NCBI GenBank assembly: GCA_905331485.1
Contig: CAJNYT010000051.1
Coordinates: forward strand, 407,310 to 471,309
Direction of reading: 5' to 3'
Source: Rotaria socialis
Lineage: Eukaryota
Length of the DNA stretch: 64,000 nt
Made by a program: the position numbers and the translations under genes. The notes beneath the pieces were generated by a model. The model worked only from the letters and a program-made list of their open reading frames with translations. It was not told where the DNA came from and made no database searches. The number at the start of each line of letters is the position of its first letter. Position 1 is the stretch's first letter. Shown here piece by piece: positions 21,136 to 58,280 of the stretch.

Positions 21136-21235
21136 ATATTCATTGGTATGGTCCATCAAGAAGAAATACTAAAGATAAATAGATTAAAAACCGTAATCTA
21201 ATATAGCACCTAATTAAATACCAAGTGTTTTCTCT

Positions 21236-24041: not shown

Positions 24042-24088
24042 GGACAATTCGTCGCGAGACAATTCGTCGCATGGACAATTCGTCGCAA
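24042..24088. repeat. Tandem array of 3 copies of a 14-bp unit GGACAATTCGTCGC (left arm)
   Basis: ggacaattcgtcgcgagacaattcgtcgcatggacaattcgtcgc. Confidence 0.85.
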
Positions 24089-24367
24089 TGTTAATTAATG
24101 AAAGAGAATATGAAATATCGCTCGACATAATTAAATCAAGTCGAATGCGTTGAACTTAATGAGTAAACCCACTATATTTTGAAAGATATTATCAATCTCG
24201 TGGAAAAGCTAATAGCTTGATGGGAAATTGAAAAAAAATCATTAAAAACAAATCATTAAAAACATTTTCATTTATCTTCCAATAAAAATAAAATGCTATA
24301 TTTTATCACAATTATTCTTTTCTCTCTTTGCTCTCTCTCTCTAGATTAAATTATGTTTACTGTATAT

Positions 24368-24503
24368 GCGACGAATTGTCCGTGCGACATATTTTTCTTG
24401 CGACGAATAGTCTGCGACGAATTGACTATGCGACGAACTGTCCATGCGACGAATTGTCCGCCACAAATTGTCCGCGACGAATTGTCTCGCGACGAATTGT
24501 CCT
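24368..24503. repeat. Tandem array of about 9 copies of GCGACGAATTGTCC, the reverse complement of the left-arm unit (right arm)
   Basis: gcgacgaattgtccgtgcgac...gcgacgaattgtcc repeated with 0-7-bp spacers. Confidence 0.85.
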
Positions 24504-38810: not shown

Positions 38811-40162
38811 TTTTTGTATCTAAAAATTTAGCAAGTTTTTATCTTGTTTTCAAGTCGAATAGAAGACTAAAATGTCTACTGTAGTCTGACTATATATTCA
38901 TCATTTATAAATGCGAGCATTTTATTCCTGATGACTAATGCGGTTACTTATTATTTTAGCAAAAGAAAAACAAAAAATAGGTAGTAGACTTCAGATTTTG
39001 CTATTTTTCTTTATGATTCTACACACTCCGCACGTGGTGTGTCATTGCACAAACTGTCGCAACACGGATATTATAGGAATTTATATATGTTATGTATCAA
39101 CATCTGGCTAAACAATTCTCGATAGATGCCATTGCCAAGCTTAAATGTCGGTTGATTAAATATTTACCAATCTCACAGTGAAATACATTTTCAGCAAGTA
39201 AAACGTCAAAAACTATGTAATTTAGACTATGAGTATGATTAGAAAAATCAATAGAATTCACCAATGAACTATCTTCAGCAAGATGTGAAGTATTTAATAT
39301 ATAAATTAAGTTCGTATATTCTCGATAACGTAAATAAGCATATTATTATGTACATATCTCAATATTGTTTCCTAATAGATGTTCAATCAAAAAAGAAATT
39401 GTTTCATATCATTTTAGTAGTGAGATGTCGCTTGAGACTTCCAGAAAATATTTACTTTGTATTTACTAAACTGTTTTTTTCCTGAATATTTATTTGGTTC
39501 ACTGAAAATTTTTTGATTGATTTATTTTTCTATAATCGGCCAATCTTATCTGCTGTATATCTACGGCATGCGATCATCTTAAAAAGACATTTGCACATTT
39601 TTTTAAATAGTATTGCCAACAATCTCACGTTTTGATTGTGTTATTAACAGGCAGTTCGATGAAAACAAAACGATTAAAAATTTAGATCGAAGGGTTGAAA
39701 TTATTGTTTTTATTTTTATACCTATAAAAACACGGTTCAACAAAGGTATGACTTGTAAATCGTTTATTGAGAAGAAAAAATAATAAAACCATTAAGCAAC
39801 AAATGAACATATGTGAATTATACAAATTTATTCGATAAGAATAGAAGTTGGTTGAAATTTTTTTCTCGATAAATTTCATATGACAAAGAATGATTCTTAA
39901 ATTCCCAGAATAATTTCCGTCATTTGATATTGAACAATTTTTTAAATTATTGTCAAAATATTCAATAATGCATACAATGGAAATAAAAATAACTGAAAAT
40001 ACCGCTAATAAATGTGTGTATAATAAACATTGGGTATATTCGAAATGAAAATTTCTTCGTGTATAAATATAATGGCAATAGTGAATATATTTGATAACAT
40101 GAGTAATTATGTTGGCTATTTAAAAGTCCATGCGATTGAAATCCTATTGGCCAAATAAAGCA

Positions 40163-40234
40163 GGGCGTGGGTGTGAGTGTACCAGTGCGATTATGGACAA
40201 ATGGCCATCCTCGTTGCCCACGCACACACATACA
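40163..40234. repeat. TG/CA-rich palindrome (gggcgtgggtgtgagtgt ... cccacgcacacacataca), a member of a recurring motif family in this window
   Basis: Inverted GT-rich and CA-rich blocks separated by about 36 bp. The same architecture is seen at 50109-50188 and 51309-51361. Confidence 0.6.
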
Positions 40235-40369
40235 ACGTCTTTTGCGCACATCATTCACGATGAACACGAATATCTTCAATTGAGAAATCAAATGTTAGCA
40301 AAAGTAACACTGGGCAAACATGCAAGAACATCTCAAATTGCTAATCAAATCGATCAGAACCAGAGACCT

Positions 40370-40515
40370 GCACAGGAAAAGATTTTTCGTCCTGTCCTAA
40401 CCTGTCCTGCTGGCTACTTTGGTCCTGGCGGGCGTCAGGGCAAGACAAAAATCGAAATCTCATCCTGTCCTCCAGGACAGGGCAGGACAGGACACCAGGA
40501 CAGCAGGACCGCCCT
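40370..40515. other. GC-rich island with at least 9 copies of the heptamer CCTGTCC / GGACAGG in both orientations (nested palindromes)
   Basis: tcgtcctgtcctaacctgtcctgctgg...tcctgtcctccaggacagggcaggacaggacaccaggacagcaggaccgccctgccctg. The overlapping ORFs on both strands are artefacts of the GC content. Confidence 0.7.
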
Positions 40516-41920
40516 GCCCTGTGCACGTCTCTGATCAGAACAGACCATCAACAACCACAGACTCTTTGGTGAAATTAGAATTATGGAATAACCAGCAATA
40601 CACGAATGGCCAATATCGCATGATCACCCATTAAACCTATGAAAGCTGGTTCGCACAACATAAATCGATTATACACAAAATACGGTGCGACTCCTTTGGC
40701 AAAATAAAGATCGTTATAAAGAAGTTCATAGGCGGAACACGAAATAATCGTAACTTGTGCATGAGAAAATTTGGAAATTTTATTCTTTCCTATTGTAAAA
40801 TTTTTCTGATACCAATAAATCTTTCAAATTCAGCTAGCCTACGAAGATAACTGAGAAAACAAAACAAAATAAAATAATTTTCATCTTGCCCAGATAGCAA
40901 AACCTACAGATTTCTGACATTAGATCATAGTATACTTGATTCACACTCAAGAATCAGAATAATTGCCATATAGCTATGACAGATTAAATATTTATTAAGA
41001 AATAAAAATAGCTGTATGTTTCATTAAAAACAAGTATCTCTTTTGGATAAAATATGTTTTATTTTCTTTGTAATAGCAGATTCTAAAGATACCCGATGAT
41101 AACTAAGTTAACCTGTAGTCAAAACGTGTCGCATTTGCCTTTGAATCTGCCAGAAATTGAGTACATAACTCACCCTCCCCCTCAATCCTCATTGTAGTTA
41201 TATATACTCTTCTCTATCATTTAACTGTTTTATTTACCCCCTGATAAGAAGAGTATAAAACATTTTCATCATATTGACTTTGTTAAAGAAAGCTTCGCTT
41301 TGTGCGCGTGATTTGAATAAATGTAAGTGACATTAATGTCTCAACGATTTTATATCATTCAGAAAATGAACGATATAATTATATGTGCCGTGTTTCCACA
41401 GTTGAACGGTTAGAGACACGATTCAGGTAACCAGTTATAATATCATAGGTTCGTTTCGTTCATTTTCCGCATGATATTTAATCGTCGAACGTCAAAGGAA
41501 GTAAAAAGCATTATTGTATAGAAACGATACTTGTATTTATCAAGAACAACAATCTCTTTATTTATCTAAATAGATAAATACTAAGAATCGTTGCGCCCAG
41601 AGGAGGATCTCTATATCTTTTTTTCACACCACTACCCCTATATGGCAACTCCAATTGCTATTTGTTTTCGTATCGTCGCTTTTTCAATTGATGCGTGGAA
41701 AGGCTTTAAAAAGCACCCGATTCAACAGCATTAGCTTTCGCTGATACTTGCCGGGCAGCACATCGTTGAAATGAATGTCTTTTGTGGGTACAAACAGACA
41801 CGGAAAAAACTGGGGACCACTTTTCTTAACAATTTTATGAGTATCGTTTTTGTGAGTCCTCTTGTTTAGAAATACAGCAAGGATAGAAAACTTCTTTTTT
41901 GACCAATCGATAACTTAAGG

Positions 41921-41990
41921 TGTTCTCTAGACAATATGTAAGTAGTCATTTGCAGTGATGAGATCGGTTCGACAAAGCACGAACCGGATC
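41921..41990. other. Strong hairpin: 20-bp stem (cagtgatgagatcggttcg / cgaaccggatcccatcactg) with an 8-nt loop, nested in a longer imperfect palindrome (tcatttgcag...ctgcaaatga)
   Basis: Perfect inverted repeat read directly from the sequence. Confidence 0.7.
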
Positions 41991-42584
41991 CCATCACTGG
42001 TCATTTGATATCATGTGTTCTTCGTTTTCTGCAATGTTTCTGCAAATGACAGTGTCAATATCCAATGAGAGATAAAGGGTCATATTAAAATATGTGTAAA
42101 TAATAAAATAAGTATAATTTCATTAACTGCTTATAAAGAATTTTCATTTCACAATGAATTTGGAATGTTAAGCAGCATGAGTTATTAAAAGCATGTAGGG
42201 TGCAGGAAATGCCAATTTTAAGCAACATTCTTTTGTCTTACTTCTTTATATGACGCGATAATGTTCTTGGAATTACTTATGAAAGGAATGCTCAATATAT
42301 TTGAACAGTCTTCTTGTTGTAAAACTTAGAAAAACTCGAATGAGACTTGATGTTTTCAGCGATCTCGTGTTTTCATTCACTTTTCTAATGTTACTAGTTT
42401 CAAAGATCATTCCATGAACACTATCAAGCCATATCGAAAAATTGCCAAAAAGAGCTGCTTAATTATTGCATTTTCAACACACTAAACGAGATCTAAAGTG
42501 TTATCATAATTTGTACAGAACGATGATTTCTTCTTTAAAATATGAAGTTATCAAGGAGAACCAATGCAGACTTCTCTTCTGATT

Positions 42585-42965
42585 TTTCTTTGTCACAGCC
42601 TCCTTTCTCATTACAGCCGCTATGGCTGGATGGTTAAGATGCTCGGCACATATCCACAAGATAGTGTGTTCAAACCTCGGCGCCATCATCCATAGAATAA
42701 CCTTGGATAAGTTACTAACGGCTGCTTTGTCTCGGATCACCCATCCGATAGCACGCTGATTACATGTGACATACATAAAAATATCCTCGTGGATAGTATG
42801 TGGTTAGTCAGTATGCATGGGAAGCTTAAGTAATTAAGCGGAAGGAACTCTGAGTCAGGCCGGCCTTCTGTCCAGAGCTGCAGCTAGTAATAGTTGTAGG
42901 AAAAATATCGGGCTCTTGAAACTGTCTCCGGACAGCTACCCTATACTGAAAGGTAGCCGCAAGGC
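42585..42965. other. GC-richer, highly structured segment; candidate ncRNA or SINE-like element, unclassified
   Basis: Local stem-loops (gctaccctatactgaaaggtagc; ggccggcc; gagctgcagctag), a GC content well above the flanks, and a (TTTC)n microsatellite immediately downstream. No tRNA cloverleaf or known snRNA box recognised. Confidence 0.25.
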
Positions 42966-42973
42966 AAGGGTAT

Positions 42974-43001
42974 TCTTTCTTTCTTTCTTTCTTTCTTTCT
43001 C
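42974..43001. repeat. (TTTC)7 microsatellite
   Basis: tctttctttctttctttctttctttctc. Confidence 0.9.
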
Positions 43002-43894
43002 ATTACATTCGTATTCTACAGTTGCGACTGTGTTTTGAAACATAATTGAAATCTAAGATTGAATAAGTAGAAGATGATTTAATACTGATATCAACAGCAA
43101 TCAGGACTCTTTGCTCGGACATTGACAATCTTTTCTCTCAAAATGTAACTATTGAGATCTTTATGATGATATTAAAATCTAAAACATTGAAAGAAGCTAT
43201 TACAGTTTATATAAGAAGTGTTTTAGAAATTCGAAGTATTCTTTTTTTTGTGAATTTAAGTTTGAAAACTTTCACGGTTTCACAAAATAAACAACATCTT
43301 TTGTTTACCTAATTTCATTTTTACCTCATTATGACATATTCGTTCATTCATTTATTGTAGATTTATTATTATATTATAAACATCTATATACCACTAGCTT
43401 TTTAAACAACCTCAACGCTTGAGCTGATCTACGAGCAACTCATTCTAGAAATGATTGCATTTCCATAGGATTAATGTACATATATTAAGAAAATAATTTT
43501 GACACAATAATTTCATTTTTTCTTCAGCGTTTTTTTCTTTAAATTTAACTTAATATGCCATTGAAAAATATTTCAAACCTTATAGAACTTTCTTTAAAAC
43601 ATGTTAACTCAAAAAACAAATGGAGAACAGATATTGATAGCTTGTAGATTAGCTGAAGCGTATAGGAAAGATAGGTCGATATAAGACGTAGCTCTCATTA
43701 ATACAGTTCATCAGATCAAAAGGAAGTAAGACTATCGGGTATCTAAAATTGGTCATCCGTTGACAGTTGAAACGTGTAAGTTAGCGACTAATTCACCATC
43801 TCGAATCAGGTCAAACTGTCATGTCTATACACTATATATCTTCCTTTTAGAGTGTATCTATCCAATCTTTTATCCTTGCTCGTCGCATTTAGCA

Positions 43895-45076
43895 ATGAAA
43901 TGGCTCTATTTTATCCTATTATTAATGGTGGCTATGCTTGTTTGTTTTGCGAAAAATGAACAGCAAACAGTGATATCTGAAATATATTCACTTGATGGCG
44001 ACTTCGACAAGATTCGGGCATCTGAACACATACAATTCGAATTGACTCACGTCAATAGTGAACCGAGTGTCATCATCGAAACGGAACAATGGTTGCATAC
44101 AGGCCAATATATAACTGTCACAACAAGACCGAATGATTGTTTGTATCCATGATTTGAAGAATACTGTCAGCTTTTACTCATAGCGTCCCATTTCCTTTAT
44201 GAATGTTAAGAAGAAGCACTTGATCTATTCAAACATGAAACGGGTTTTTTGAATATATTTCTATATGAAGAAAAAGATAGTTGAGCAAAGAGAAATATTG
44301 ATTTAATAGATTTCTTGAGCAGATTTGTTAGTTCAGTCTCATCGCAATGTGTTGCAAGTAAAGAAAAACTTTTATTTTTACCTTTTATTCTGAAGACACT
44401 TTATTGAAAAAAAAAAGAATTATTTCAAATTTGTTTGGCAGATCTTGATATCAAATTGGCGAGCGGCACTAATTATCCAGCAATCAAAGTGTATGTTAAT
44501 TACCGCAAAGCTCTCCTTAGTTTGGAAATAGATGGAATGTCGTCAATGAGATCAAGAAACGTCATTTTTAGTAATCCTTCATCGCTTTTGAATATTGCAC
44601 ATTCTGGAGCTGGCAGCGCAATACTCAAACTACAACACGGTTCTAATATTAATGTTGCCATATCTGGTACAGGCCAACTCTCTTTGTCCGGTCGAGTTCA
44701 AGGGAATGGACGATTGAGCGTCTCAGGTACTGCGCACTTGGATGCAATCGAGTGTCCAATGAATATTGCGACTGCTGAAGTGGCTGGATCTGGATCAGCT
44801 TCTGTTTATGGTGTAAAAGGAGTTCATGCCACCGTGAGTGGAGTTGGTAACATTTGCTATCGAGGACCTTTGCTTAGTCAAGTGATAAGTGGTCTTGGCT
44901 CGATCAAAGAGTGTATTGTTGAAGGGACACCTGCAGAACCTCAACAAACAGCTACAGAACCTCAACAAACATCTACAGAACCCCAAAATTCATCATCGCA
45001 AAGCGACAAAATCATGGATAGAAATCAACGATTATTAGTGATTCTTGCTACTACAGTTTTCTTTCTCTTCTTCTAA
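43895..45076 (+). CDS. Secreted, GPI-anchor-like protein with a Gly/Ser-rich beta-solenoid region resembling the bacterial DUF2807 (putative adhesin head, GIN) fold; 2 exons
   Basis: Exon 1 about 43895-44138: signal peptide MKWLYFILLLMVAMLVCFA, then NEQQTVISEIYSLDGDFDKIRASEH.... Candidate donor gtttgt at 44139 and acceptor tttggcag at 44441. Exon 2 44442-45076: ...AHSGAGSAILKLQHGSNINVAISGTGQLSLSGRVQGNGRLSVSGTAHLDAIE...VAGSGSASVYGVKGVHATVSGVGNICYRGPL..., followed by Pro/Thr/Gln repeats (TPAEPQQTATEPQQTSTEPQ) and a hydrophobic C-terminal tail (LLVILATTVFFLFF), stop TAA 45074-45076. Confidence 0.55.
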
Positions 45077-48000
45077 TTAATCATTAATTGACACTGTTGC
45101 TTTTCTTTTCAATTCATAATCGATGATCCTATAAAGTATGCCTTTCCCTCAAGAAAATCTTCTTACGCCGATTTCGATAACATAATATTCGTTTCTTAGA
45201 CAACAACAACAGCATGAGATATAAGAATAAGACTTGTTTTAATAGTATCATAGAGTTATACGGCTAGATGATGGATAGGTGAAACGAGCACACTCGCATC
45301 CTTTTTTCTATCAGATTTGCCAACATAACTACAACCTGGAAAAGAAAGCTTGCCCAAGTGACATCATAACCAAATGATAACGGTTCTTCTCAAAAAGATA
45401 ATCAGATAGATCTCTCTTATATTCAACTATATAAATAGAGGAAATATCTATTTCATAAACATTTAAGAACTATTCATTTTGTCCACGCCAATAAATACAA
45501 GGTAAGATATCATTTGATTGTTGAAAACCGAGTCACTTAGGCATACATATATTTCTTCAATTTAATAATGAAACAGCAAAGGCAGGCAACCTGCACACTG
45601 GATTTTTGTTTTTACATTTAATATCTTCTTTTTCACCTTATGGATTTTTTCATCTAAGAACGATAGGGTTGAATGTAAATCACATCTTCAACAATAATTG
45701 TTTTCAAAAGCAACCGTTGTTAGGGAGCAAAAGTTATCGTAAAATGAAATGAGTGTGTGAATTCATTAGTAAATTGATAGTGAACTGCTGCATAGGTTTA
45801 TCGTACTATTTTTAATCCCAAGTCTAGAATATGATCGGCATATGTGAAACCAATGATCTTTTCACTTTGATTGGATTTTATGACCTTTTAATGATATTGG
45901 AGCTGAATTAATTTTTTCATGCCAAGATAAATAAAGTCCAATATCATTATGAAAATCTAAATGACGACGTGATAAATTATTTTTCGTATTATTAATTTCT
46001 GTTGATGACCATCTGTCAAGACCAACAACCCACTCAGGTCTATGAGCAAAACAGGAAGAATATTTCAATGAACTATTTGATGATTCAATTAAACGTGTTG
46101 TTAATGATCGATCAATTGATAGACAACAATAATGAGATGAATATGAACATTCTTCAAATTTCGACAAATCCATCTTTTCAATTTTTTTAGTTTTATTAAC
46201 AACAAAAAAACATTTCTTTTCTTTTTGATTGAACTTTTTAATAGAACTATTGGAGTAATGCTTTTCACCATAATAAGAGCAAAGATGTATTCACACTAAC
46301 AATATGAGTTTTATGCATCACAACATTTTTTTTAATAAGAATAAACATTAATCAAAGTGATCTCTTAAAAATATTTCACAATAATAAGAAAAGAAAGATT
46401 ATTTAGAATTAGGTAAATTGTAAACAGAACAACGTTCAATTAAATTGTTCATTAACACAATTGGCAATAAACAACATTTATGAATTCTTTTTAAAAAAAA
46501 ACCATCATCGATTCACATTCAATGTCAAAACCATTAGAACTATTTGTTTATTTATTTAATTTATTCAAGTGTAAGTGGCCTTGTAGGGCTTTAAATTTAA
46601 ACATTTAACATGTCAACTGTATGTGGAACAACAATAGATTGATTTCGTTAGAAAATTTATTCTTCTAAAACAGATTTGTTTACAATATTAATTTATAATT
46701 AAGTTTAAAGAAAACAAAATGTAGAATTTTGTTTTTTTTTGTTCGACAGAATTAATAGAAATCTTTCAAAATTATTTTCGATCATTTTAAAACTGATTAA
46801 GAATTTTTTTTGAAAAGAATTCATAAGATTTTATTCTAAATAATTTCAATTTTATTTTTTTTTTAGTTTCATATTTTAATAAAATAACAGTTTGTTTTTT
46901 GTGTAAAGGTTACTATTTATTTTTTATTTATAAGCGTTCGACGATTTTCTTTACTACTATCGTTGTTCAATTCTGCATCAGTTGTTTCAGTTGTTGATAG
47001 ATCTCCTAAAATGATATTAAAACAATGAATGTTATTTATTTCGATGCGAAAATGTTTTTATCGCTTTTTTAGATTTTAAAATTTCAATTCATTTTTCAAT
47101 TAGAGAAAATCTCAATATATTGTTTAACAAGACTTAATGTTATTATTTAATAAAACACAATGAATAATAGTGCTAAAGATTCTGAATTCAAAACAAAATG
47201 AGTTAACAGAAATTGATTCTGGTTTAAACATATTTAAAGTGTAGAATTTTAAAGAGATATTAACGAATATTAATATTATGTAAAAAGTTGTAAGAAAATG
47301 GTTCATAACAATGGTCTATTTGATTTTATTAATGTAAAAACATCTGATTTCAAGATTTCAACCAGAGAAAAATCGCTTCAAGTAAATCTTTCTTTTCAAA
47401 TATTTATTTCTAAAAACTACTCAATAAAAGTTTTTCGATAACAGTGCATTATCTATATTGAAGAAAAGTTCTGCATGAACTACTATCCGTAACAGTTATA
47501 GGACTCTATTACAATGCTTTCGCTATTTCTAAGTGTTTGTTGAGCTCAAGTAGATTGCTACGCTGCAGTTTTGAATGAGACCAATATCTTATCTTTGACG
47601 CTTTAGTTCACTGATAATAAGTGATAACACTCGATACTTTTCTTTAATCCTTTCCGACCAGCTACTAGAAGACCGGTAGAAAACAAATATTTTCGGGCGA
47701 ATTCTTAGTTCCGTTATCGGGGAGATGCTAAAAGTGTGGTCGTTGGTACAAAAAAAGCTACACGTTACCGAACGGTCGAGTGTGGCCTACAAGCAAAATC
47801 CCAACATGTCAATTTTTTGAATTCACTGCCTAATCCATCTGAGTAACTCAATAGATCATACATCCATAGGAGAAAATTAATCGCTAATTGTTTCTTCGAT
47901 TGATAGTTAAGACACGAGAAAAACGCAGAATTTCTATTCCGACCCTTTTTGGGGGGATCCCAAACCGACCCCTCCCTGTATTCAGTGAAAGGTTATATTT

Positions 48001-48279
48001 TTCTTGTACGTTTATGGATTTACTCATAAATGTATTGGCGTAATTATCAATGTGCTAAAGAATTAAATATGATGAGTACAGATCAGCCCTGCACCAAATG
48101 TTAACTCAATATTGCCAAATGGCTACATCCGGCTGGAAAGGGTTAAGATGAACTCAATCAAAGCTGTCCCTTCTAAAATAGTATAATTGTTTTATCAATT
48201 CAATATGTACTAATCGAACATCCATTTTTTTCTGTAGTAAATCGTCAAGATCCTAGATTTCCTACTCCTTAAAATTGCC

Positions 48280-48519
48280 TTATCGAAAACCTTGTGATAA
48301 CATACCTGATCGTTTGTTACGAGCAGCGGCGAATTCTTTTTCCAATATTTTAATCATAGTTATTGTGCTTGCTTTTAATCCTTTTCGTGAATCCTGATTG
48401 TCAGCATCAACAACGTAAAATTTAATACCGCCCAGGACGATCATTCCGACCGCCGGAACGATCATCTTAACAGGACTGAAGCGTCTATAAAAATGGTATA
48501 ATAAGGCGTTAATTTGCAC
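48280..48519 (-). CDS. Candidate terminal coding exon of an unidentified gene
   Basis: 79-aa ORF (..GIKFYVVDADNQDSRKGLKASTITMIKILEKEFAAARNKRS) with an upstream tttcag-type acceptor context. No domain assigned. Confidence 0.2.
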   Translation of the reverse strand: MQINALLYHFYRRFSPVKMIVPAVGMIVLGGIKFYVVDADNQDSRKGLKASTITMIKILEKEFAAARNKRSGMLSQGFR

Positions 48520-48670
48520 CTCGTTTCGCCGTAATCCGTCAGCTCGTTTTACGGACCGTTTTTCCGCTAGAAAACGGCCATCGTTTTTAACAAAATATTC
48601 GTCGTTTTCTGAGCTGACGGAAAACGGTGTCGTTTTTCAACGTTTTTTACGTCTTTTACGGCCATTTATG
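48480..48670. repeat. ACGG/CGTTTT-rich repeat related to 22200-22460
   Basis: cgttttacggaccgtttttccgctagaaaacggccatcgtttttaac...gacggaaaacggtgtcgtttttcaacg. Confidence 0.5.
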
Positions 48671-48820
48671 CACCGTTTTCTTGGACCTGGGTGGTTTCTC
48701 GTACACTTGGAAAAATAGTGCTGCTCATTTCAACTATTTCTCCTAATGACATATTCATCAATACACGTTGATTCACAATAGCCAAATCATCACATAAAAA
48801 TGTTGCAAACTCCTTGGTAT

Positions 48821-49117
48821 CCCAGGTCGAACAATCCGGCCTGGAAACGGCCGCTTCCGGGTAGTTTCGTTGATTTTGTGGAAGCAGTATTCCGGTTGGA
48901 AATTTGTCGCATTTTTTCCGGTGGTTTACGATTAATTCCTGCCGGAAAGCACCGGAACTTGGCAGGAATTCGTCGGAAAAGTCCGGCCGTATTTTTGACC
49001 GGAATACTGCTTCCATGTTCCAGCAATTTTCTGTGTTTTCCTGCAGGGTATGGTGCCTTTTCCGCATATTCCCTGGAGTATCTTACGGGATCCGGTGGCC
49101 GGAATGTTCGACCTGGG
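48821..49117 (+). mobile_element. MITE-like foldback element, copy 2 (about 297 bp), with a perfect 13-bp TIR CCCAGGTCGAACA / TGTTCGACCTGGG
   Basis: Direct-orientation homolog of 21236-21500. Internal palindrome gtggaagcagtattccggttgg / accggaatactgcttccatg. The overlapping ORFs on both strands (48666-49192) are artefacts. Confidence 0.8.
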
Positions 49118-50108
49118 ATACTCCTTTTCTGCATATGCAAAGAATTGTTGCGGATTCATAATAGCTATAAGTTAAAAATCGAAGCAAAATAAATAATGAT
49201 CACAAGCAGAAAAAAAACATACTGAAGAATATTTGACCGAACGACAAAATGAACAATGTAATTATGATATTGACACAATAAAGAACACAAGTTTTCGATT
49301 TAGTAATTGATTTCAGTGGACAATTTGCTCACACTCGCAAATATATGTGTAATGTGTGTACACATATACCTATTTCCATATGACCGGTCGTATTTTGTCC
49401 TTTCTTTTCTTTTCGTTCAGTAAGAAAAAGAGACCAAGTATGGCGCCATAGTACGATGGCTATACATTTCTAACATGATATTGGCAAGATAAAAGTGAAA
49501 CGATATCGAATGAGAGATTTTCTTCAATTCCTCAATGGTAAAATTACCTTTTAAACAAAAATGTGTTTATTCAATAGACATTTTTCAATAATAAAACTAG
49601 GGGATGAGAAGTTATTGTTAATTAGTAACAATAATAATAATTTTCTCGAAGAATCCGGCTCGCAGCTTTTCTTGATTATACAAGGTGTATCATAATGATA
49701 AGACCCTCTATTGACTTTTGAGAAAAATAAAAATTTCATTAACTAAAGAACGTTTCATTTCCAATTCAATGGCATATCTATCAGTGTCTAGTAGTAGTCT
49801 ATCATGTATCATATTTGCTTCAATTTGACCAATTAACGTCCATGAAGAAATTGAAAAATTTGAGTTTGAATTGCCTGATAATTATAAGACCGGCCTTTAT
49901 CACAATATGTGAATGCTAAATTCACCCTATCTTTACCAGCTCAAATGACCCTTTGAACTTTCTATTCGGAAGAGGAAATAGTTAGCTACACGTTGAAAAT
50001 ACGCTAGATGGAAAAAGCTAAGTTCAACTTTTCTATCGTTTAAGAAATTAAATTCAATGTCAAAACTACCACTATGTAATTCGAGAAAAGTAAATTTTCT
50101 GTTCCTTA

Positions 50109-50188
50109 GTGTGGGGTGTGGGTGTAGGGTGTAGGTGTGGGTAGCGGTGCACAGACACAATATCAGCATTCACATCCCACACCCGTAG
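50109..50188. repeat. TG/CA-rich palindrome (gtgtggggtgtgggtgtagggtgtaggtgtgggtag ... cacatcccacaccc), overlapping the apparent 5' end of the GTPase fragment ORF
   Basis: TG1-3-like tract followed about 25 bp later by its CA-rich complement. Confidence 0.7.
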
Positions 50189-50877
50189 TTTCTCTGAATA
50201 GTATTATGAAGAATGTCAATAATGTTCTACAATACGGAAAACAAATGCAACATGGTACTAGCATACCTGTCATATGTGTACTCAGTAAAATCGATGAGTA
50301 TTTCCAAGGCCAAGCGCCTAATTGTGAAGACGATGTCAAACAACTGGAAGAATATACTGAAAGAGCTTTAACGTTGGTAAATAAGTACTTGATTGATCCA
50401 GCTGTCCAATGTATTCCCATATCAACAAGATGCAATTATGGTGTTGACCAACTTCGGCTGAGTATCAATGCTCAATCACCACTGAATGCTCAAATCATTG
50501 ACAAAAATCTTGATTACATTAGCCGATGTCGACTATCAATAGCCAATAAAATTATAGGGGCTTTTTCTACAGCTTCTGCAGCAGCATCGTTTCTACCTCT
50601 TGCGAACATCGTCATTGTAACTTTCTTAAAAGAATGGATGTATCGAATGTTGGCTTGTTTTTCAATCGACCCAAATCGAACCTCGGATACGTTCAAAGCG
50701 GTGCATCGTATGCAACAAACTGCTAGTGTAGCTATTCGTGTTGGTGCACTCTTCATTGGAGGTGTACTTCAATTAAGCATTGTGGGCTACTTTATTGGCA
50801 CGAGTATATGTGTAGTTACAGCCGCAACATCAACAGCTGCTCTCGGTTGGGCATCCTATTTTTACTTTGTTGACTAG
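50137..50877 (+). pseudogene. 3' portion (or terminal exon) of a TRAFAC-class GTPase gene (GTPase C): G4-like LSKID, C-terminal transmembrane anchor. No G1/G3 motifs are present in the ORF
   Basis: Translation ...IPVICVLSKIDEYFQ...CIPISTRCNYGVDQLRLSI... ends with hydrophobic TM segments (LPLANIVIVTFL; GALFIGGVLQLSIVGYFIGTSICVVTAATSTAALGW), stop at 50875-50877. The upstream region is a TG-rich repeat rather than a P-loop exon. It could be a genuine last exon whose 5' exons lie outside a recognisable range. Confidence 0.45.
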
Positions 50878-51250
50878 ATAGAAGTTTGTCGTTTCTACGC
50901 AAACACCATTACCAGAAGGCATTCTATGAAACTGAATAAATCTAGAGAGAATGAGTATTGAAAACAGGATTTTTTCGTTCTTTCAACAGTTTATTTTGCT
51001 CTCTTAACTGTAACGCGTTGTTTTTTGAATGTTCTAAATAAAGACTTCATTTCGATTCAATGAATATTAAATTTGCTACTTTTCAATCATAATTTTTCCT
51101 GAAGTACCTGCCTGATTCCTTTTTAGTAAATAATCGTTACATGAATGGCAACAAATATCTGGATGTATAGATCGAGTGAGCGTTTATCAGTCTATTCATA
51201 ATTATCATTTTTAACGGAATTTTTTTTCTAGAAAAAAAAGCATTTCTATG
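50761..51250 (+). repeat. Direct repeat copy 1 (490 bp): last about 40 codons plus the 3' UTR of GTPase C
   Basis: About 93% identical to 56999-57466. Both end at ...aaaagcatttctatg. Confidence 0.9.
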
Positions 51251-51361
51251 TGGGTGGGTGTGGGTGTGTCATAGATGTCATAATACCGTTACACTGAGTA
51301 TTGTGATGAGTGTGGGTGTGTGGGGGTATATAAGCAAGACACACACCCACACCCTCACCCT
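51251..51361. repeat. TG-rich block (tgggtgggtgtgggtgtg), then a TG/CA palindrome (gagtgtgggtgtgtggggg tatataagcaagaca cacacccacaccctcaccctc), immediately 3' of direct-repeat copy 1
   Basis: Read directly. It marks the left boundary of the putative inserted cassette. Confidence 0.8.
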
Positions 51362-51529
51362 CAAGAAAAAAAAGTTTTCCTATTTTTCTATTCTAACAGG
51401 AAAGTGCATATGACAATTATAATTCGAATTCGAAAAAAACCTTTTTCCTAGTTTTCCTATTTTCCTGTTGTCGAATGGGAGTGCTAGTTGAATTTTTATT
51501 TATTTTCGAAGTAACTTGATGCACTCCCA

Positions 51530-51910
51530 TGTTGCGAATACCGGATCAATTTTTGCGGTAAACCGCGGTATTTATCCGTTCTGCGGTAATGGGAGCCGGT
51601 AGCCGGACCGGTAAAACCGCGGCAAACCGGCGGTTTTTTGCGCATGTTTATCACATGTAAAAGTAAAAACAAAGGATCTTTAAAATAGTTTAATTGATGA
51701 TTTGGAAGACTTTTTCTGTCAAAATTTATAGATGAACCGGTTAACCGCCTTTTTTAGCGGTAACCGCGGTATTAATCAAAACCGGCGATTTACCGCGGTA
51801 AATGCCAGCTCATTTTTTGTGGTAAACCGCGGTATTTATCCGTTCTGCGGTAATGAGAGCCGGTAACCGGACCGGTAAAACCGCGGTTAACCGCCGATTT
51901 TCATGCGGTT
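51530..51910 (-). repeat. CCGCGG-rich dispersed repeat, copy 2 (reverse complement of 20672-21110)
   Basis: ccgcggtatttatccgttctgcggtaatgagagccggtaaccggaccggtaaaaccgcggttaaccgccgattttcatgcggt is the reverse complement of 20672-20755. The AT spacer is also conserved. Confidence 0.85.
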
Positions 51911-51997
51911 TTTATTACATGGGCTTGAAGCTTCATTTATATTCGAATTCGAATTAGGTATATCATGGCTTTGATACAGATATTAGCCTCATCTAAG

Positions 51998-52020
51998 CGC
52001 ACACACCCGAACCCACATCG
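51998..52020. repeat. Solo CA-rich block (cgcacacacccgaacccacatcg)
   Basis: Same motif class as 51341-51361. Confidence 0.5.
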
Positions 52021-52553
52021 ACACTCTTGTTTTTAAATCTTAGCTGTCTACAAGTTAAATATGAATATATTTGCTTAATTTGGTCAAACAATCGAATGAA
52101 GAACATCAATAGTGGCAAGAATTGATTTATGTAAAGGATTATCTCTGTTTTTCATGAGTGCCTTTTCTATATAAGAATATTCTATACTTGATATCAAGCT
52201 TGTCTTTTAAACTTGATCGTTTTTAACTTGTGGAAAAAGGTTTGCCTTTTCGAAGAAAAATAATTTCACAGAAAGAATTTTTCAGATTTCATTTTTATCT
52301 CCTACATATAATTATTCACTGTCAAGTAACATATATGCAGATTTGCCGGAAAATCTGATAGAATTCCAGTACATATTATACCAATATAATTCTAAAGCTC
52401 TATCAAGATAAAGTCATCTTAAACTGGATTTTTTTTAGAACGGTACGAGCTACCATTTTCATGAACGTAGGTATAATGAGAAGAATTAAACATTTACAAC
52501 CGCAAATTACTTTAATAACAAGACAAAAATCAATTTGTATTCGAAAAATATAT

Positions 52554-54464
52554 TCATGTATTGTTTCCGTATAAGTAACTCACGACTTGGTTCTGGCCTC
52601 GTTTATTTGAAAGGATCTTCACAGTAGCATCGTAATAGCGTTTCATATCTATGTTTTCGTCCATTACACTAATAGTTTTATTGAATTTTGTGAGTAAATC
52701 TTGAGTTCGACCAATAATGTCATAGTTTTTTTTTATTGAAAGTAATGCAGTGACTTTTGCTTTTAATTGTGTTAACGATGAGTTTATTTCTGTTTCCAAC
52801 TTTTGCTGTCTGGCAATCAAGTGTTGTGCTTTAGTTTTTAACATAAATTCTTGTTGTTCAGCATAAGTATAATGTGATCGAGTCTCATTATCTGGTAATG
52901 TTACTCGGACTTTTGCTGTTTGTTGTCGATACATAGGATTATGGGGATTATACCCATCATCATGATCATAATGAGCCTTACTGTATTTCTGATCATGTGG
53001 TCGTTCTCTTGAATATGTGTCATGTCTCTCATCACGATCATGTGATGCTGAAATCTTATGATCTTTACCACAGGTTTCAGCAGTCGCTGATGATGAAGGA
53101 TATCCAGCAGTTCGAGCAGAATATGGTCTTGTAGTTGAATGTGTGCTGTTGTGAGAAGAATCATGATGAAATGAAGTATCGGTATTCTGTTTTAATGATG
53201 ATGAACACGTAGAAGAACGGCTTTCTTGAGGATCATGGTGATGATGATGATTGGATGAAGGATTTTTATACTCTGGTGGCTTGCAATGCTGACCAGTGTC
53301 ATTATCAGTATGCGCCGAAGGATTATTTTTATGCATGTAGTCATCATTCGTTGAATATGAACCGTGTGGATCTCGATTAACAACAAAAGATCTCGAGGTG
53401 TCTTTTTCACAACTCCTTCCTGACGAAGAGGCGCTTTGTGCTGATGCTGGTCGACGATTTTCAATAAATTTCGATGGATTTTCTGATTTTGCGGGTAGTA
53501 GTGATCGTGATTGATGTTGTGGTGATTGATCCCAACGCATAACTGTGATTTCTTGATCTTTTTCCCATTTTTCATTACATTGCATTGTATGGTGCGCATT
53601 GCTAATGCCATCTTCTGTTGCAGTTTGGTCTTTATATATATTAATTAGACTGATAATTTTGTTGATAGCCTCAATAATACAATTTTCAATTAAAGCTATT
53701 TTAATACCACCAATTTCGAATACTTGTGTTGAAACGCTATTAAATTGTAACAATTTTCGCACTAAAGTTTCAGTTATGTCCAGAGTGTCTTCAAAATCTT
53801 GTTCAAACCGACGTATTGCTTTTGATGATTGATTTTTGGGGTTCCATCGAAATAAGCTATTTTGCAAGTGAAATACCCTGCTATCATCTATTTTAAAATG
53901 ATCATGTAATATTGCTGGATCTAAATTAACACTAAGTTTATCACAATTTGTCAAAACTGCAACACAATTGTTTAATAAATCATTTGGCCATATTTGATAC
54001 AATGAATGTAAAACGTTTTTGAATGACACACCGAGACGTGGAAGAGCACCGTTTATAACAATAATAATTCCATTTAGGAAAGGTAATTGTTTTAGAGTCT
54101 TTTCAATGCAGTCCAAATTTCTTTCATCGACATCGAAGCCGTTTGTGTCATTGAATCCTGGTGTATCAATTAGTTCGAGATAAAAATCTGCTGTTCGAAA
54201 TGAATACGTCATGCATTTCTGCGTCTGACTTTGTATTTGATCATTAATATCACGTTCACTGTGCTTATTTCGGTATTTCTTATCAAGACAGTCCAACCAA
54301 TTTGCACATGGTATAGATAATTTAACTTGTGGACTAGTACAAAAAATATTTTTTGGATCTTTTGTACCATAACTCATATTATACAAAAAGTTAATTAATG
54401 AAGATTTTCCGACACCAGCATCGCCAAGTAAAATAAAACGTTTCGGCTCGCGCGCTGAGGTCAT
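52554..54464 (-). CDS. Intronless TRAFAC-class P-loop GTPase A (636 aa): N-terminal G-domain, then a His/Ser/Thr-rich disordered region and a C-terminal coiled coil; GIMAP/AIG1-Toc34-septin-like
   Basis: Full-length ORF with G1 LLGDAGVGKSSLINFL, G3 LIDTPGFNDTNG, hydrophobic IIIVINGAL and G4-like VLTNCDKL. HHHHHDPQ and S/T/H-rich low complexity in the middle. Heptad-like C-terminus (LIARQQKLETEINSSLTQLKAKVTALLSIKKNYD). Coordinates taken from the ORF track. Confidence 0.8.
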   Translation of the reverse strand: MTSAREPKRFILLGDAGVGKSSLINFLYNMSYGTKDPKNIFCTSPQVKLSIPCANWLDCLDKKYRNKHSERDINDQIQSQTQKCMTYSFRTADFYLELIDTPGFNDTNGFDVDERNLDCIEKTLKQLPFLNGIIIVINGALPRLGVSFKNVLHSLYQIWPNDLLNNCVAVLTNCDKLSVNLDPAILHDHFKIDDSRVFHLQNSLFRWNPKNQSSKAIRRFEQDFEDTLDITETLVRKLLQFNSVSTQVFEIGGIKIALIENCIIEAINKIISLINIYKDQTATEDGISNAHHTMQCNEKWEKDQEITVMRWDQSPQHQSRSLLPAKSENPSKFIENRRPASAQSASSSGRSCEKDTSRSFVVNRDPHGSYSTNDDYMHKNNPSAHTDNDTGQHCKPPEYKNPSSNHHHHHDPQESRSSTCSSSLKQNTDTSFHHDSSHNSTHSTTRPYSARTAGYPSSSATAETCGKDHKISASHDRDERHDTYSRERPHDQKYSKAHYDHDDGYNPHNPMYRQQTAKVRVTLPDNETRSHYTYAEQQEFMLKTKAQHLIARQQKLETEINSSLTQLKAKVTALLSIKKNYDIIGRTQDLLTKFNKTISVMDENIDMKRYYDATVKILSNKRGQNQVVSYLYGNNT

Positions 54465-54922
54465 GTTTCTTATTTTTTAAGCAGAATGTAATATGAAATG
54501 AGTTGTCTATACTATTGCAAAGTATCGAGCTTATATATTCAGAATGCAGTTGACTTTTTCCTACTCGTTGATGTATCTTATCAAGACTCTTGAGAATATT
54601 TACTAAGAAGAACAAAGTTTATTGCTCTTGGAATATATTGATGCAAATTTTCAGCATATAACATACAGAAGCAAGGAAGTACATGCCTATCTCAACCGTT
54701 CGAGAGACTTCAATGGTCTATGTTGGAACAAATAAGAAGATATGGCAATAAAGATTACAAGCGAATTTTTGTCATTGCAGTAAGTCAAATCAAACAAATT
54801 TACATTTTTTTTCCAAGTTTTTGCTTTGTTCGAAATTACATGTCTACATGTATATATAAATTACTTCAAAAAAAATACATCATTATACATCAAAAATTAA
54901 AAATTAAAAGCCAAAAGCGAAG
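54465..54922. promoter_or_regulatory. About 458-bp divergent intergenic region between GTPase A (-) and GTPase B (+); presumed bidirectional promoter
   Basis: Head-to-head gene arrangement. No element verified. Confidence 0.4.
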
Positions 54923-56416
54923 ATGTCTTTTTCCAGTATTACCGTGTTCTCCTGCTCTACCGTCCGAAAGGAGTCGAATCCAAATATTATCATTCTATTC
55001 ATTGGTGAATCAGGCTCAGGCAAATCAACTTGTATAAATTATTTTGCCAATTATTTTACCAATTCTTCATTTGATGAAGAAGATCATTATTCAAATATGA
55101 AAATTGTTATACCAAACAGTCTATTTCCTGAGCCGAATTTTCCTGAGGGACACCATCGACATTGTGAGCGTAATGTACATGATACTAGTATGAGTCAAAC
55201 GCAAGAATGTACTGCTTATGATTTTCGATGGAATGGGCAATGTATCAAAATTATAGATACACCTGGTTTTAATGATACAGATTCCCATAAAGATGATCAA
55301 AATATTCAGAAAATCTTGACACAAGCTTCACAAGTTCCATTCATTAATGCTATTGTAATCACGATCAATGGCACAAATGTTCGTTTATCAACATCCATCA
55401 AAACAACATTGAGTCAACTGCGTAGTTCATTACCAGATAAAATTTTTAAAAATTTATTTTTTATCTTCACAAATTGTACTGAAGAAACTAGAAACTTTGA
55501 TTTATCCCTGATTTCTGAATTCAAACCATCAGAAGAACGAACATTTCATATGCAAAATGCATTGTTTTCCATCAAAGATAAGTCGTTACTTCAAAACACA
55601 AAATCAGTACGAAAAATGGCACAAACATGGAAGGAGTCGGTAGAAACAATGGGCGAAATAATGCAGGAAATAAATCAAACATCGGCTACATCGGTACAAG
55701 TATTTAATGATATGAGAATTCGACGAGAACAACTGATTGTACACAAGGAGAATTTGATTGAAAAACAAAAGTCTTTGCTAAATATCATGAATACATTGCA
55801 AATTGAAAAAGAGCGTTTGAAAAATGCCTCTGAAGATCAACAAGCAAACAAAAATTTCACGGAATCAAAACGTATCAGCGTTATTGATATAGAAAAAAAA
55901 TCATATTATAGTACAATTTGTCTGAGACATGGTAAAGTACAAGTATGCCATGAGAACTGTTCGTTATCATATGAGCCCAAGTTGAATTTGCATCATTTTC
56001 AACAATGTGCTGCTGCAAATGGATCAAATTGCCGACATTGTGCGTGTGGAATGAATGACCATTTACATTCTTACGAAATTCCAGTATCACGACTAAAAAC
56101 GGTTGAAGAAATCATTCAAAGTAAAAAGGCTGCTTTTGAACAAGCCAATAGAAATATAAAAAGTAGTAGCGATAGAGTTGTTCTCTTAGAGCGTGTTCGA
56201 GATGCTTGTCAGAATGAGGTTAATGATATTAAAGATGGCTTGTTGACGACAATAAAGGAGTTGAAACAAATTTGTTCACACTTCAATTTTCACGATGAAA
56301 TGAATGGTACAATACAAAAGTTAAGAAAAGAAGCTAAAATTGCAACAGACTTTAAAGCAAAGCAAGAATTCACTCGAACAGCCAATGCCATTGAACATTT
56401 TATCAATCGAATTTAA
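54923..56416 (+). CDS. Intronless TRAFAC-class P-loop GTPase B (497 aa), a paralog of A: G-domain, Cys/His-rich segment, C-terminal coiled coil
   Basis: G1 LFIGESGSGKSTCINYF, G3 IIDTPGFNDTDS, VITINGTNVRL and G4-like FIFTNCTEE. Shared blocks with A (SQTQ(K/E)C(M/T)(T/A)Y.FR, ERTFHMQNALF / SRVFHLQNSLF). CxxC/His cluster CHENCS...CRHCACG. Coiled-coil tail. Coordinates taken from the ORF track. Confidence 0.8.
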   Translation: MSFSSITVFSCSTVRKESNPNIIILFIGESGSGKSTCINYFANYFTNSSFDEEDHYSNMKIVIPNSLFPEPNFPEGHHRHCERNVHDTSMSQTQECTAYDFRWNGQCIKIIDTPGFNDTDSHKDDQNIQKILTQASQVPFINAIVITINGTNVRLSTSIKTTLSQLRSSLPDKIFKNLFFIFTNCTEETRNFDLSLISEFKPSEERTFHMQNALFSIKDKSLLQNTKSVRKMAQTWKESVETMGEIMQEINQTSATSVQVFNDMRIRREQLIVHKENLIEKQKSLLNIMNTLQIEKERLKNASEDQQANKNFTESKRISVIDIEKKSYYSTICLRHGKVQVCHENCSLSYEPKLNLHHFQQCAAANGSNCRHCACGMNDHLHSYEIPVSRLKTVEEIIQSKKAAFEQANRNIKSSSDRVVLLERVRDACQNEVNDIKDGLLTTIKELKQICSHFNFHDEMNGTIQKLRKEAKIATDFKAKQEFTRTANAIEHFINRI

Positions 56417-56959
56417 TAAGCAATTACAGTGACGACCATTTATTCTAGAACTGTGACATTTCGTACCAGAATCTAGCAACTAGTACGAACAGTGATAAAG
56501 CTGTATAGGGATTGTATGCGCTTTAAAAATTGTTTAAAATATATATACTTCATTCTTACTCTTAATAGTTTTAATTAATTTTAATTTAGCCTATTTACGT
56601 ATATCAACAAGGTTATTGAAAGTCAAATAACATGAAGATGTGAGCCAATACAGGTTGGTGCTTGTACTGGCGTCACATTATGGGCAGAAAAAAGGAACTA
56701 GGAGTAATTCTTTCAATGACTGCAGCTAATATTTTAATTTTTGCTTTGTTACAAATAGCTGACACATCATACTGATTGTCTGTATTTACTCAGCTCCTCC
56801 TAATTGGCAGGTTGCTAGAAAATCAACTTTCCGACTTTTGAAAACTATGCATTTGACACAACACAATATGGTTGTATCATTATGATGTTTTTCAGTCAAA
56901 TGAGACAAGAATTTCTATCATGCAGTTAGAATACTACGCGGATTTAACTTGAGGATGTG

Positions 56960-57113
56960 AGTATCGAGTTTTCTCCTATGTGCGCCCACACTCATCCAGG
57001 TGCACTTCAATTAAGCATTGTGGGCTACTTTATTGGCGCTGGTATATGTGTAGCTACAGCCGCAACATCAACAGCTGCTCTCGGTTGGGCATCCTATTTT
57101 TACTTTATTGACT
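56960..57113 (+). pseudogene. Orphan 3' remnant of a GTPase-C-like gene (TM-anchor tail only), within direct-repeat copy 2
   Basis: The translation ..HPGALQLSIVGYFIGAGICVATAATSTAALGWASYFYFID-stop is about 90% identical to the C-terminus of 50137-50877. It is preceded by a CA-rich block (gtgcgcccacactcatcc) and no upstream exons. Confidence 0.6.
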
Positions 57114-57466
57114 AGATAGAAGTATGCTGTTTCTACGCAAATACCATTACTAGAAGACATTCTATGAAACTGAATAAATCTAGAGAGAATGAGTATTGAA
57201 AACAGGATTTTTTTGTTCTCTTAACTCTAACGCGTTATTTTTTCAATGTTCTAAATAAAGACTTTTCATTTCGATTCAATGAATATTAAATTTGTTATTT
57301 TTCAATCATAATTTTTCCTGAAGTTCCTGCCTGATTCCTTTTTAGTAAATAATCGTTACATAAATGCCAACAAATATCTGAATGTATAGATCGAGCGAGC
57401 GTTTATCAGTCTATTCATTATCATCATTTTTAACGGTTTTTTTTTCTAGAAAAAAGCATTTCTATG
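56999..57466 (+). repeat. Direct repeat copy 2 (468 bp) of 50761-51250
   Basis: Collinear alignment throughout. It is followed by unrelated sequence (ttaacaag), whereas copy 1 is followed by a TG-rich block. Confidence 0.9.
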
Positions 57467-58280
57467 TTAACAAGTTTTAAAAACCAATAAACATCTTCAT
57501 CCCTATATAAGTACTGGAACATAAATAGTATTCATACATGATTCTGACCCTCAAAAGAATTTATTTATTCATTCTATTTCAGTCAGTTCGAAAAAAAAAG
57601 ATTTAATGCAAAACTGTACGATCATGTTTATGTCTTGCTAATGAAGATAAGACAAGTCATGATTCTGACAACGATAATATATTCCTTAAATGTCATTCGC
57701 TGTACAATTCATTCCTAATAATAGTTAAGTTGATGATTGCAATCGACTGAAGTCAAGTTTAAGTAGAAGAACAAATTAATTATGTATATCAAAAAGAAAC
57801 TCTTTCATCTTCTAGCAACATGCAACACTAACAATAGTAGGATAAATCCTCATGGAATTCAAGTTCATGAACACATATAATTAGTTTTTCCATAGAAGAA
57901 AAAACAAAAAAAAATTAATATGAATCTTTCTTTTTCTCGACATACATTTATTTATAATAAATTTAAGGTAAAAAAATATTAGCCACCCGATGTTTTCTAA
58001 TTGTATGTGACACAACTTGCATCACAAATATATGATTATATCATATTTAATTATACGTCCGACGGCCAACGTCTGTTTTCTAAAAAAATCAAAACAATTC
58101 CTCTGTTGATCAAATTTGACTTGGCAATCATTTTGTTTTCTTTCTTTTCCGATGCTACTGATGAATAAAAGATCTTCTCAACATATTTCATTTGTCATGC
58201 AATAAACAATGCGTGCTACAGTACGATAATAATTGTCCTAGAGTATGTTGCCTTTTTTTCTTCTTTAGACAATCATTATC

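Follow-up and report, generated by a model that had tools for sequence, protein, structure and literature searches.

Head-to-head interstitial telomeric repeats at rearrangement breakpoints in Rotaria socialis: probable scars of capped and rejoined DNA ends

Introduction

Bdelloid rotifers withstand massive DNA breakage, and their genomes harbour many foreign genes; how their broken ends are stabilised and their gene islands assembled is in question. The hexamer array (TGTGGG)n is the bdelloid telomeric repeat and is also found at interstitial positions, near transposons and foreign genes (PMC7943196, PMC8494291, PMC13564844); bdelloid subtelomeres likewise contain short telomeric stretches beside transposons, tandem repeats and foreign genes (PMC2861651, PMC6431247). 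In lines of Adineta vaga, telomeric repeats and fragments of Athena retroelements occur at fresh deletion breakpoints, and a 2026 study of mutation-accumulation and irradiated lines proposed transient neotelomeres that "leave only scars" (PMC13564844). Here we describe short tracts of this repeat in a 64,000-nt stretch of the bdelloid Rotaria socialis (GenBank assembly GCA_905331485.1, contig CAJNYT010000051.1, positions 407,310 to 471,309), referred to below as the window, where they lie at the edges of duplications and of a polymorphic rearrangement that truncates a GTPase gene.

The locus adds a well-resolved case to a feature already known from bdelloids. The tracts are probably scars, left where the DNA had broken or a chromosome had once ended and where the free end, capped with telomeric repeats, was afterwards joined to other sequence; they lie in an island that holds at least one bacterial-type gene. 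The original prediction, made from the letters of the window, had described six paired sites of yeast-like repeats and had suggested foldback transposon ends, recombination hotspots or G-quadruplex-prone motifs as their nature.

Results

Identity and inventory of the tracts. Every 12-mer of the window was compared with all rotations of (TGTGGG)2, a tract being called plus when its G-rich strand lies on the plus strand. Eleven tracts were resolved (structure A is the intact allele of the GTPase locus, described below):

19957-19974, plus: left arm of site 0, G-strand tract GATGTGGGTGTGAGT, located by the 12-mer scan, at an end of homology
19995-20009, minus: right arm of site 0, C-strand tract CCCACAGCCACC, after a 20-nt unique spacer
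40162-40181, plus: left arm of site 1, G-strand tract GGGCGTGGGTGTGAGTGT, intergenic, also in assembly L001
40217-40230, minus: right arm of site 1, C-strand tract CCCACGCACACACA, after a 35-nt unique spacer
50109-50143 (50112-50143 in the scan), plus: left arm of site 2, G-strand tract GTGTGGGGTGTGGGTGTAGGGTGTAGGTGTGGGT, 5.3 units, absent from structure A
50176-50187, minus: right arm of site 2, C-strand tract CCCACACCC, at the break in the GTPase gene, which it caps
51249-51270, plus: G-strand tract TGTGGGTGGGTGTGGGTGTGT, at the 3' end of the GTPase unit and the end of the duplicated segment 50760-51251
51306-51327, plus: second G-strand tract GTGTGGGTGTGTGGGGGT, 35 nt past the first, left arm of the tightest head-to-head pair
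51337-51363, minus: C-strand tract ACACACACCCACACCCTCACCCTC of ACACCC and TCACCC units, with the hexamer TCAAGA (51361-51366) next to it
52002-52024, minus: solitary C-strand tract CACACCCGAACCCACATCGACA, left border of a two-GTPase cassette, in all assemblies compared
56983-56994, minus: weak solitary C-strand tract GCCCACACTCAT, 12 nt with 2 mismatches, directly before a truncated gene copy

The repeat unit is a regular hexamer, TGTGGG, with TGAGGG variants, and not the irregular TG1-3 of yeast to which the original prediction had likened it. Exact 12-mers of the (TGTGGG)2 type occur at 50114-50125, 51254-51268 and 51342-51354, the other tracts carrying up to one or two mismatches, and Tandem Repeats Finder reports a period-6 array of GTGTGG, 5.3 copies long, at 50109-50142. 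Within the window, the expectation that the motif exceeds what dinucleotide composition yields was borne out: the probe TGTGGGTGTGGG, with up to 2 mismatches allowed, matched 18 times against 0.49 expected from dinucleotide shuffles (shuffle maximum 3). R. socialis being a bdelloid, and bdelloid telomeres consisting of (TGTGGG)n, the tracts are the host's own telomeric repeat at interstitial positions, and the earlier recognition of telomere-type repeats is thereby confirmed. No tract was found in 60 kb of orthologous PARP4 loci of other bdelloids (L004-L006), which lose DNA homology to the window at ~38.8 kb, before site 1.

Orientation and anatomy of the pairs. All six sites listed in the original prediction exist, and three of them are pairs of G- and C-strand tracts as it had described; 52002-52024 and 56983-56994 are solitary C-strand tracts, and the pair at 19957-19974 and 19995-20009 was missing from its list. 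All close pairs of opposite orientation (less than 40 nt apart) read G-strand then C-strand, that is, head to head (4/4, with none in the order C then G). The same polarity extends around position 51330, where the two tracts immediately to the left are G-strand and all three tracts to the right are C-strand. At every tract associated with a breakpoint, the G-rich strand runs 5' to 3' away from the retained sequence.

The spacers between paired arms are 9 to 35 nt long and mutually unrelated (mean column identity 48%, driven by the arms). The arms vary in length from 12 to 34 nt and lie in the hexamer register of the host telomere, and two sites have one arm only. Hairpin potential is modest, with arms of 8 to 16 bp and z-scores from −0.4 to −3.0 (−1.8 to −3.0 in four of the five structures); the best hairpin is formed by the pair at 51306-51363 (16 bp, z = −3.0), and that of site 1 is no better than shuffled sequence (z = −0.4). 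The window contains no canonical G-quadruplex motif (four runs of at least three G, loops of 1 to 7 nt) and a single relaxed one (loops up to 12 nt), at 50113-50141. The pairs were also considered as young introns, the G tracts containing GTGAGT; this was rejected when correction of an annotation offset placed site 1 between genes.

Tracts at breakpoints and duplication edges. Of the 12 breakpoints of homology or of structural variants that were mapped, five fall no more than 5 nt from a tract, a coincidence reached in none of 200,000 random placements. The tract abuts the end of homology to an intact allele or paralogue at 50183, 51251, 51255, 56998 and 19957. The placement of sites at the boundaries of the GTPase cassette and of the duplicated segment, as originally proposed, thus holds at 51249, 52002-52024 and 56983-56994.

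The segment 50760-51251, which stops where the G tract at 51249 begins, is duplicated at 56998-57467, and the copy starts 4 nt past the C tract 56983-56994, inside coding sequence:

56998-57467, plus: truncated copy of the GTPase gene 3' end and 3' UTR (50760-51251), 470 bp, ~90% identical

Between the two copies, the two-GTPase cassette 52025-56982 is bracketed by C tracts of the same orientation, 52002-52024 and 56983-56994. An older duplication, 14113-14533 and 19518-19957, ends in the same manner: homology stops exactly at the G tract 19957 and is not resumed past the pair.

This older duplication lies in a gene-like tandem duplication, 12940-14533 and 17907-19957 (64-70% identity), whose second copy is cut at the tract 19957. 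Small hydrophobic open reading frames (ORFs) are present in both copies, at 13963-14175 and 19368-19556.

The telomeric complex 51250-51360 (site 3), 111 bp long, is flanked by a direct repeat:

51227-51249, plus: left copy TCTAGAAAAAAAAGCATTTCTAT, 23 nt, abutting the complex
51361-51383: right copy TCAAGAAAAAAAAGTTTTCCTAT, 23 nt, 19 of 23 positions identical to the left copy (p ~0.001)

The repeat, present at both edges, resembles a long target duplication. Flanking duplications were absent from sites 0, 1, 2 and 3b and from five metagenome modules described below, so site 3 is the only one flanked.

Allelic series at the GTPase locus. Assemblies of R. socialis show three structures at the GTPase locus around site 2:

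Structure A (L001, L002): intact 406-aa GTPase gene, site-2 pair absent
Structure B (window, L003/L007, L010): 704 bp, comprising the promoter and 5' part of the gene, replaced by a 4.3-kb segment
Structure C (L008, L009): as B, with a further 594-bp deletion of ~50662-51255

In structure B the gene is cut between CCCACACC and CGTAGTTTC (CCCACACC followed by CGTAG), and homology to structure A resumes at 50183. The C tract is fused to the cut gene and stands head to head with the G tract that ends the 4.3-kb segment. On the bottom strand the cut reads ...GAAACTACG followed by GGTGTGGGATGTG..., with microhomology of at most 1 to 2 nt; judged from the letters at this junction, it would be the pattern expected if repeats had been added onto a broken 3' end. 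The intact allele lacks the site-2 tract, which thus came in with the rearrangement. In structure C the flank ...CTTGTTTT is joined directly to GGGGTGTGGGTGTGT, and because this deletion ends inside the tract 51249-51269, a pre-existing tract was re-used as a breakpoint.

The features specific to the rearranged alleles are as follows:

45874-50108: 4.3-kb segment specific to structures B and C, containing a 305-bp miniature inverted-repeat transposable element (MITE) and ending in the site-2 G tract
50188-50877, plus: 3' remnant of the 406-aa GTPase gene, with an annotated 210-aa product (50245-50877) in the assembly of the same type, L003

None of the eight ORFs of at least 60 aa in the 4.3-kb segment matched Pfam, and an exact-protein lookup of its 103-aa ORF matched only the same contig. 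Divergence between structures A and B peaks around the variant, at ~5.5% over 50183-51248, and falls to ~0.4%; because it peaks at the variant and decays, the two structures are old haplotypes. A sharp boundary of divergence at the tracts was considered and dropped, as the peak decays outward from the variant.

A recurrent hexamer beside the tracts. Metagenome contigs were scanned for TGTGGGTGTGGG-N5-35-CCCACACCCACA, which returned 54 loci. Many are perfect hairpins of high-GC bacterial DNA, and some are long palindromic tracts at contig ends that may be assembly artefacts; both were set aside. AT-rich loci carry the same head-to-head modules beside eukaryotic or FG-GAP-repeat genes. Among them is L064, with coding sequence for a MAGUK fragment; every named relative of this fragment is bdelloid (Adineta ricciae, 88%; R. 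socialis, 75%).

An invariant hexamer, TCTTGA, stands directly before the G tract (TCTTGA followed by GGGTG[T/A]GGG) in eight junctions with flanks that are unrelated in all other respects:

Window, 51361-51366
L015, 934
L023, 1250 (reverse complement)
L028, 2111
L046, 2418
L046, 3241
L050, 1060
L064, 267 (reverse complement)

Three further tract junctions end in TGA, and L028, L050 and L064 have in common an 11-nt loop, TAAAGAG[C/A]A[G/C]A, between their opposed tracts. The hexamer is missing at site 2 and in structure C, the two junctions for which the ancestral sequence is known. A control scan of viral contigs for TCTTGAGGGTGWGGGTG gave 43 chance matches in phage genes, none of which continues as a tract. 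An element body beside TCAAGA was sought and rejected, as the flanks do not align.

Genes and repeats around the tracts. The window is AT-rich (~32% GC) and contains intron-split animal genes, including a VIT/VWA PARP4-like gene and an inward-rectifier K channel (IRK) gene. The site 1 pair lies between the PARP4-like gene and a gene with a DUF2807 domain:

From ~38810, minus: start of the PARP4-like gene
43895-45076, plus: DUF2807 gene ("putative auto-transporter adhesin head GIN domain"), Pfam E = 7e-18
52554-54464, minus: AIG1-like GTPase gene, 636 aa, divergent from its neighbour in the cassette 52025-56982
54923-56416, plus: AIG1-like GTPase gene, 497 aa, divergent from its neighbour in the same cassette

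The annotated DUF2807 product of 292 aa spans 1,182 nt, so the gene contains intron sequence; sited between two tract pairs, it is likely a horizontally acquired, domesticated bacterial gene. The 636-aa and 497-aa GTPases have the exact sequences of R. socialis proteins CAF3317238.1 and CAF3317247.1, encoded on a 631,551-bp contig. The promoter region common to these divergent genes (54630-55497, especially 54750-55000) is a local patch of divergence, with 16 differences from L001 within 250 bp; across 54630-55497 the window cannot be aligned to L003, to which it is identical elsewhere.

Two MITE families are polymorphic at the GTPase locus (51524-51923 and 50003/4). A non-coding repeat of ~400 bp is present at 51524-51923 and 20660-21118, the copies being 95% identical; direct repeats of 120 bp lie inside it (GGTAAACCGCGGTATTTATCCG...). 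L001 and L008 lack the copy at 51524-51923, which marks that copy as a MITE-like insertion that is polymorphic. The MITE of ~305 bp at 48817-49121 recurs at 21235-21461 and has 25-bp terminal inverted repeats, GTATCCCAGGTCGAACAATCCGGCC. A related element of ~300 bp, with ends CCCCAGGTC...GACCTGGGG, is found at 50003/4 in L008 and L010 and is lacking in the window; its insertion point is ~100 bp from the site-2 pair. Two further repeats are unrelated to the telomeric tracts: a 16-nt tandem array, TGCGACGAATTGTCC, of ~9 copies within 24041-24503 (with inverted copies at 24041-24087), and a coding-type repeat of 42/54 nt rich in GGT and GAC (28255-28452).

Discussion

The tracts look mainly like products of breakage, not its causes. 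For the order of events, the enzyme and the route of joining, we infer the following. A free 3' end, left by a chromosome break or belonging to a former terminus, would receive a few telomeric units de novo, added by telomerase or by an Athena-type reverse transcriptase (RT). Such short caps would not persist, and the capped end would later be joined to other DNA. Where two capped ends were joined, their G-rich additions would come to lie on opposite strands, necessarily giving (TGTGGG)n, short filler and (CCCACA)n in that order; on this view the palindrome family of the original prediction is the host telomere repeat and no new mobile element. Where DNA was instead added distal to a cap and the new end capped again, tract orientation would be kept, as may have happened at 51249/51306 and 51337/52002/56983. 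This scheme matches the published Athena/Terminon-assisted growth and internalisation of subterminal chains with captured genes, and likewise the transient neotelomeres proposed for deletion breakpoints in A. vaga lines.

Several points weigh against this account of capped and rejoined ends. First, no tract stands where the 4.3-kb segment begins on the left (45873/45874), and site 2 is therefore not a simple two-ended break-and-rejoin. Second, the elevated divergence between structures A and B is not sharply bounded by tracts. Third, the 23-nt repeat at site 3 suggests a staggered-cut insertion rather than a fusion of two ends. Fourth, the short spacers are unexplained, filler DNA or decayed repeats being assumed. 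Fifth, the occurrence of TCTTGA before tracts in eight unrelated bdelloid junctions is not predicted by random breakage. Sixth, one comparative study did not find TERT in A. vaga (PMC5405514), so that "telomerase" is here an assumption. Finally, every event is read from its end state and none was caught happening. Other papers assume that telomerase makes (TGTGGG)n.

The hexamer could mark a favoured site of pairing beside the template of the enzyme that adds the repeats, a leader templated by an Athena-type RNA or a nuclease preference. That some tracts are copies of a fixed RNA template ending ...(ACACCC)n(UCACCC)UCAAGA, and not free-running additions, is a doubtful proposition at present; if it were true, the RNA could be telomerase RNA or an Athena-type RNA.

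A possible, though less probable, alternative is that the tracts were left by endonuclease-deficient Penelope-like retroelements of the Athena/Terminon kind, the island at 40-57 kb being an internalised subterminal chain. Such elements prime on exposed G-rich ends through 3'-terminal (ACACCC)n or (TCACCC)n, suffer 5' truncation, are capped again with telomeric repeats and capture host genes, and the proposal overlaps with capping and rejoining rather than excluding it. It would account for the intervals bounded by tracts of the same orientation, namely G to G at 51249/51306 (a 35-nt unique gap), C to C at 51337/52002 and C to C at 52002/56983, which holds the GTPase cassette. The sequence of 51339-51360, ACACACACCCACACCCTCACCC, consists of ACACCC and TCACCC units like those described at the 3' ends of Terminons, with no element body upstream of it. 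The TCTTGA leader, and a loop that is similar in three metagenome loci of bdelloids, give a hint of a shared RNA template. Terminal addition yields tracts of one orientation, however, and does not by itself explain head-to-head pairs; at site 2 and in structure C, where the ancestral sequence is known, the repeats sit directly on host sequence. Nor were the hallmark parts of such elements found. Sixteen ORFs (eight large ones from 34129-62006 and the eight of at least 60 aa from the 4.3-kb segment) gave no Pfam match to an RT, a scan in which short frameshifted relics were not exhaustively excluded. No hammerhead ribozyme was found at the Rfam gathering threshold in the window, nor at E-values up to 5 in 49500-52500. 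The gathering-threshold scan of the window returned no Rfam match of any kind; sub-threshold matches to microRNA and SymR families were rejected as hairpin artefacts.

The tight pair at 51306-51363 might instead be the relic of an ancient end-to-end fusion of chromosomes, flanked on either side by what was once subtelomeric DNA, with the other pairs arising later and separately, but we regard this as unlikely. The polarity around 51330 would fit a fusion point, and both flanks carry lineage-specific or bacterial-type genes and MITEs (DUF2807, GTPase paralogues) while themselves sitting between ordinary metazoan genes (PARP4-like, IRK). A hotspot of horizontal gene transfer with interstitial telomeric repeats in A. 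vaga has been read as a possible ancient fusion (PMC8494291). Against this, the tracts are very short (18-27 nt), the direct repeat around the complex is not predicted by fusion, and there are another three or four head-to-head pairs in a span of 32 kb. One of these originated recently within a gene, so that pairs can form without whole chromosomes fusing.

It is less plausible still that the tracts are causes, telomere-like DNA that folds into hairpins or G-quadruplexes, stalls replication and so provokes breaks and recombination. The hotspot suggested by the original prediction survives to the extent that the structure C deletion re-used an existing tract, and the pairs can fold into hairpins of 8 to 16 bp, with z-scores from −1.8 to −3.0 in four of five. 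The site-2 tract, on the other hand, is missing from the intact allele and came with the rearrangement. The hairpins are weak, with site 1 no better than shuffles, and solitary tracts are unable to form them. The G-quadruplex proposal is similarly weakened by the lack of any canonical motif, the relaxed motif in the site-2 tract being the one point in its favour.

A foldback or MITE family of DNA transposons whose inverted repeats mimic the telomere repeat, with the pairs as its termini or excision footprints, is very improbable: a superficial inverted-repeat architecture and the truly active MITEs nearby (51524-51923 and 50003/4) speak for it, while the spacers share nothing, four of the five sites and all five metagenome modules lack a target duplication, the arms vary in length in the register of the host telomere, two sites have one arm, and the site-2 flanks are not a filled and empty pair.

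Capping followed by rejoining is therefore the reading that we prefer, and the locus offers a natural, allele-resolved case of it, in which one gene is seen intact, cut and telomere-capped, and cut again at an existing tract. It supports a role for neotelomere formation and rejoining in shaping bdelloid genomes in the wild as well as in irradiated laboratory lines. Such events could be counted across a genome by a simple signature, the G-then-C orientation rule. If TCTTGA is templated or is a preferred pairing site, it would also provide a handle on the RNA that templates bdelloid telomere synthesis and break healing.

Comparison with known systems

The closest described systems are the interstitial and subtelomeric stretches of bdelloids (Gladyshev & Arkhipova 2007, 2010; Simion et al. 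2021), which have the same hexamer, (TGTGGG)n, and keep the same company as the tracts described here (transposons, tandem repeats and foreign-type genes). In the accessible parts of that literature, head-to-head pairs with spacers of 9 to 35 nt and a natural series of three alleles are not described.

The neotelomere signatures of A. vaga resemble the present tracts in that telomeric repeats stand at the breakpoints of large deletions. Those signatures are laboratory events in another genus, seen in clipped reads. The R. socialis scars, by contrast, come from wild-derived assemblies, in which they are either fixed or polymorphic, and repeats stand on both sides of the join. Athena and Terminon elements share with the locus the ACACCC/TCACCC stretches, the tracts of the same orientation that bracket captured genes and the growth of subterminal chains; the locus differs in that neither an RT nor a hammerhead was found and in its head-to-head pairs, which are not their expected product.

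Outside rotifers, the relic of head-to-head telomere fusion at human 2q13 consists of a G-strand array followed directly by a C-strand array, is hundreds of base pairs long and is unique. The order of G strand then C strand is the same, but in R. socialis several tiny pairs lie within 32 kb, and one of them is polymorphic inside a gene. Primates and rodents have short interstitial telomeric sequences that were inserted during the repair of double-strand breaks and are unidirectional. These resemble the R. socialis tracts in placing a few telomeric units at a repaired break with no transposon features; in R. socialis, by contrast, opposed tracts are the rule, and the joins come with deletion or with foreign DNA.

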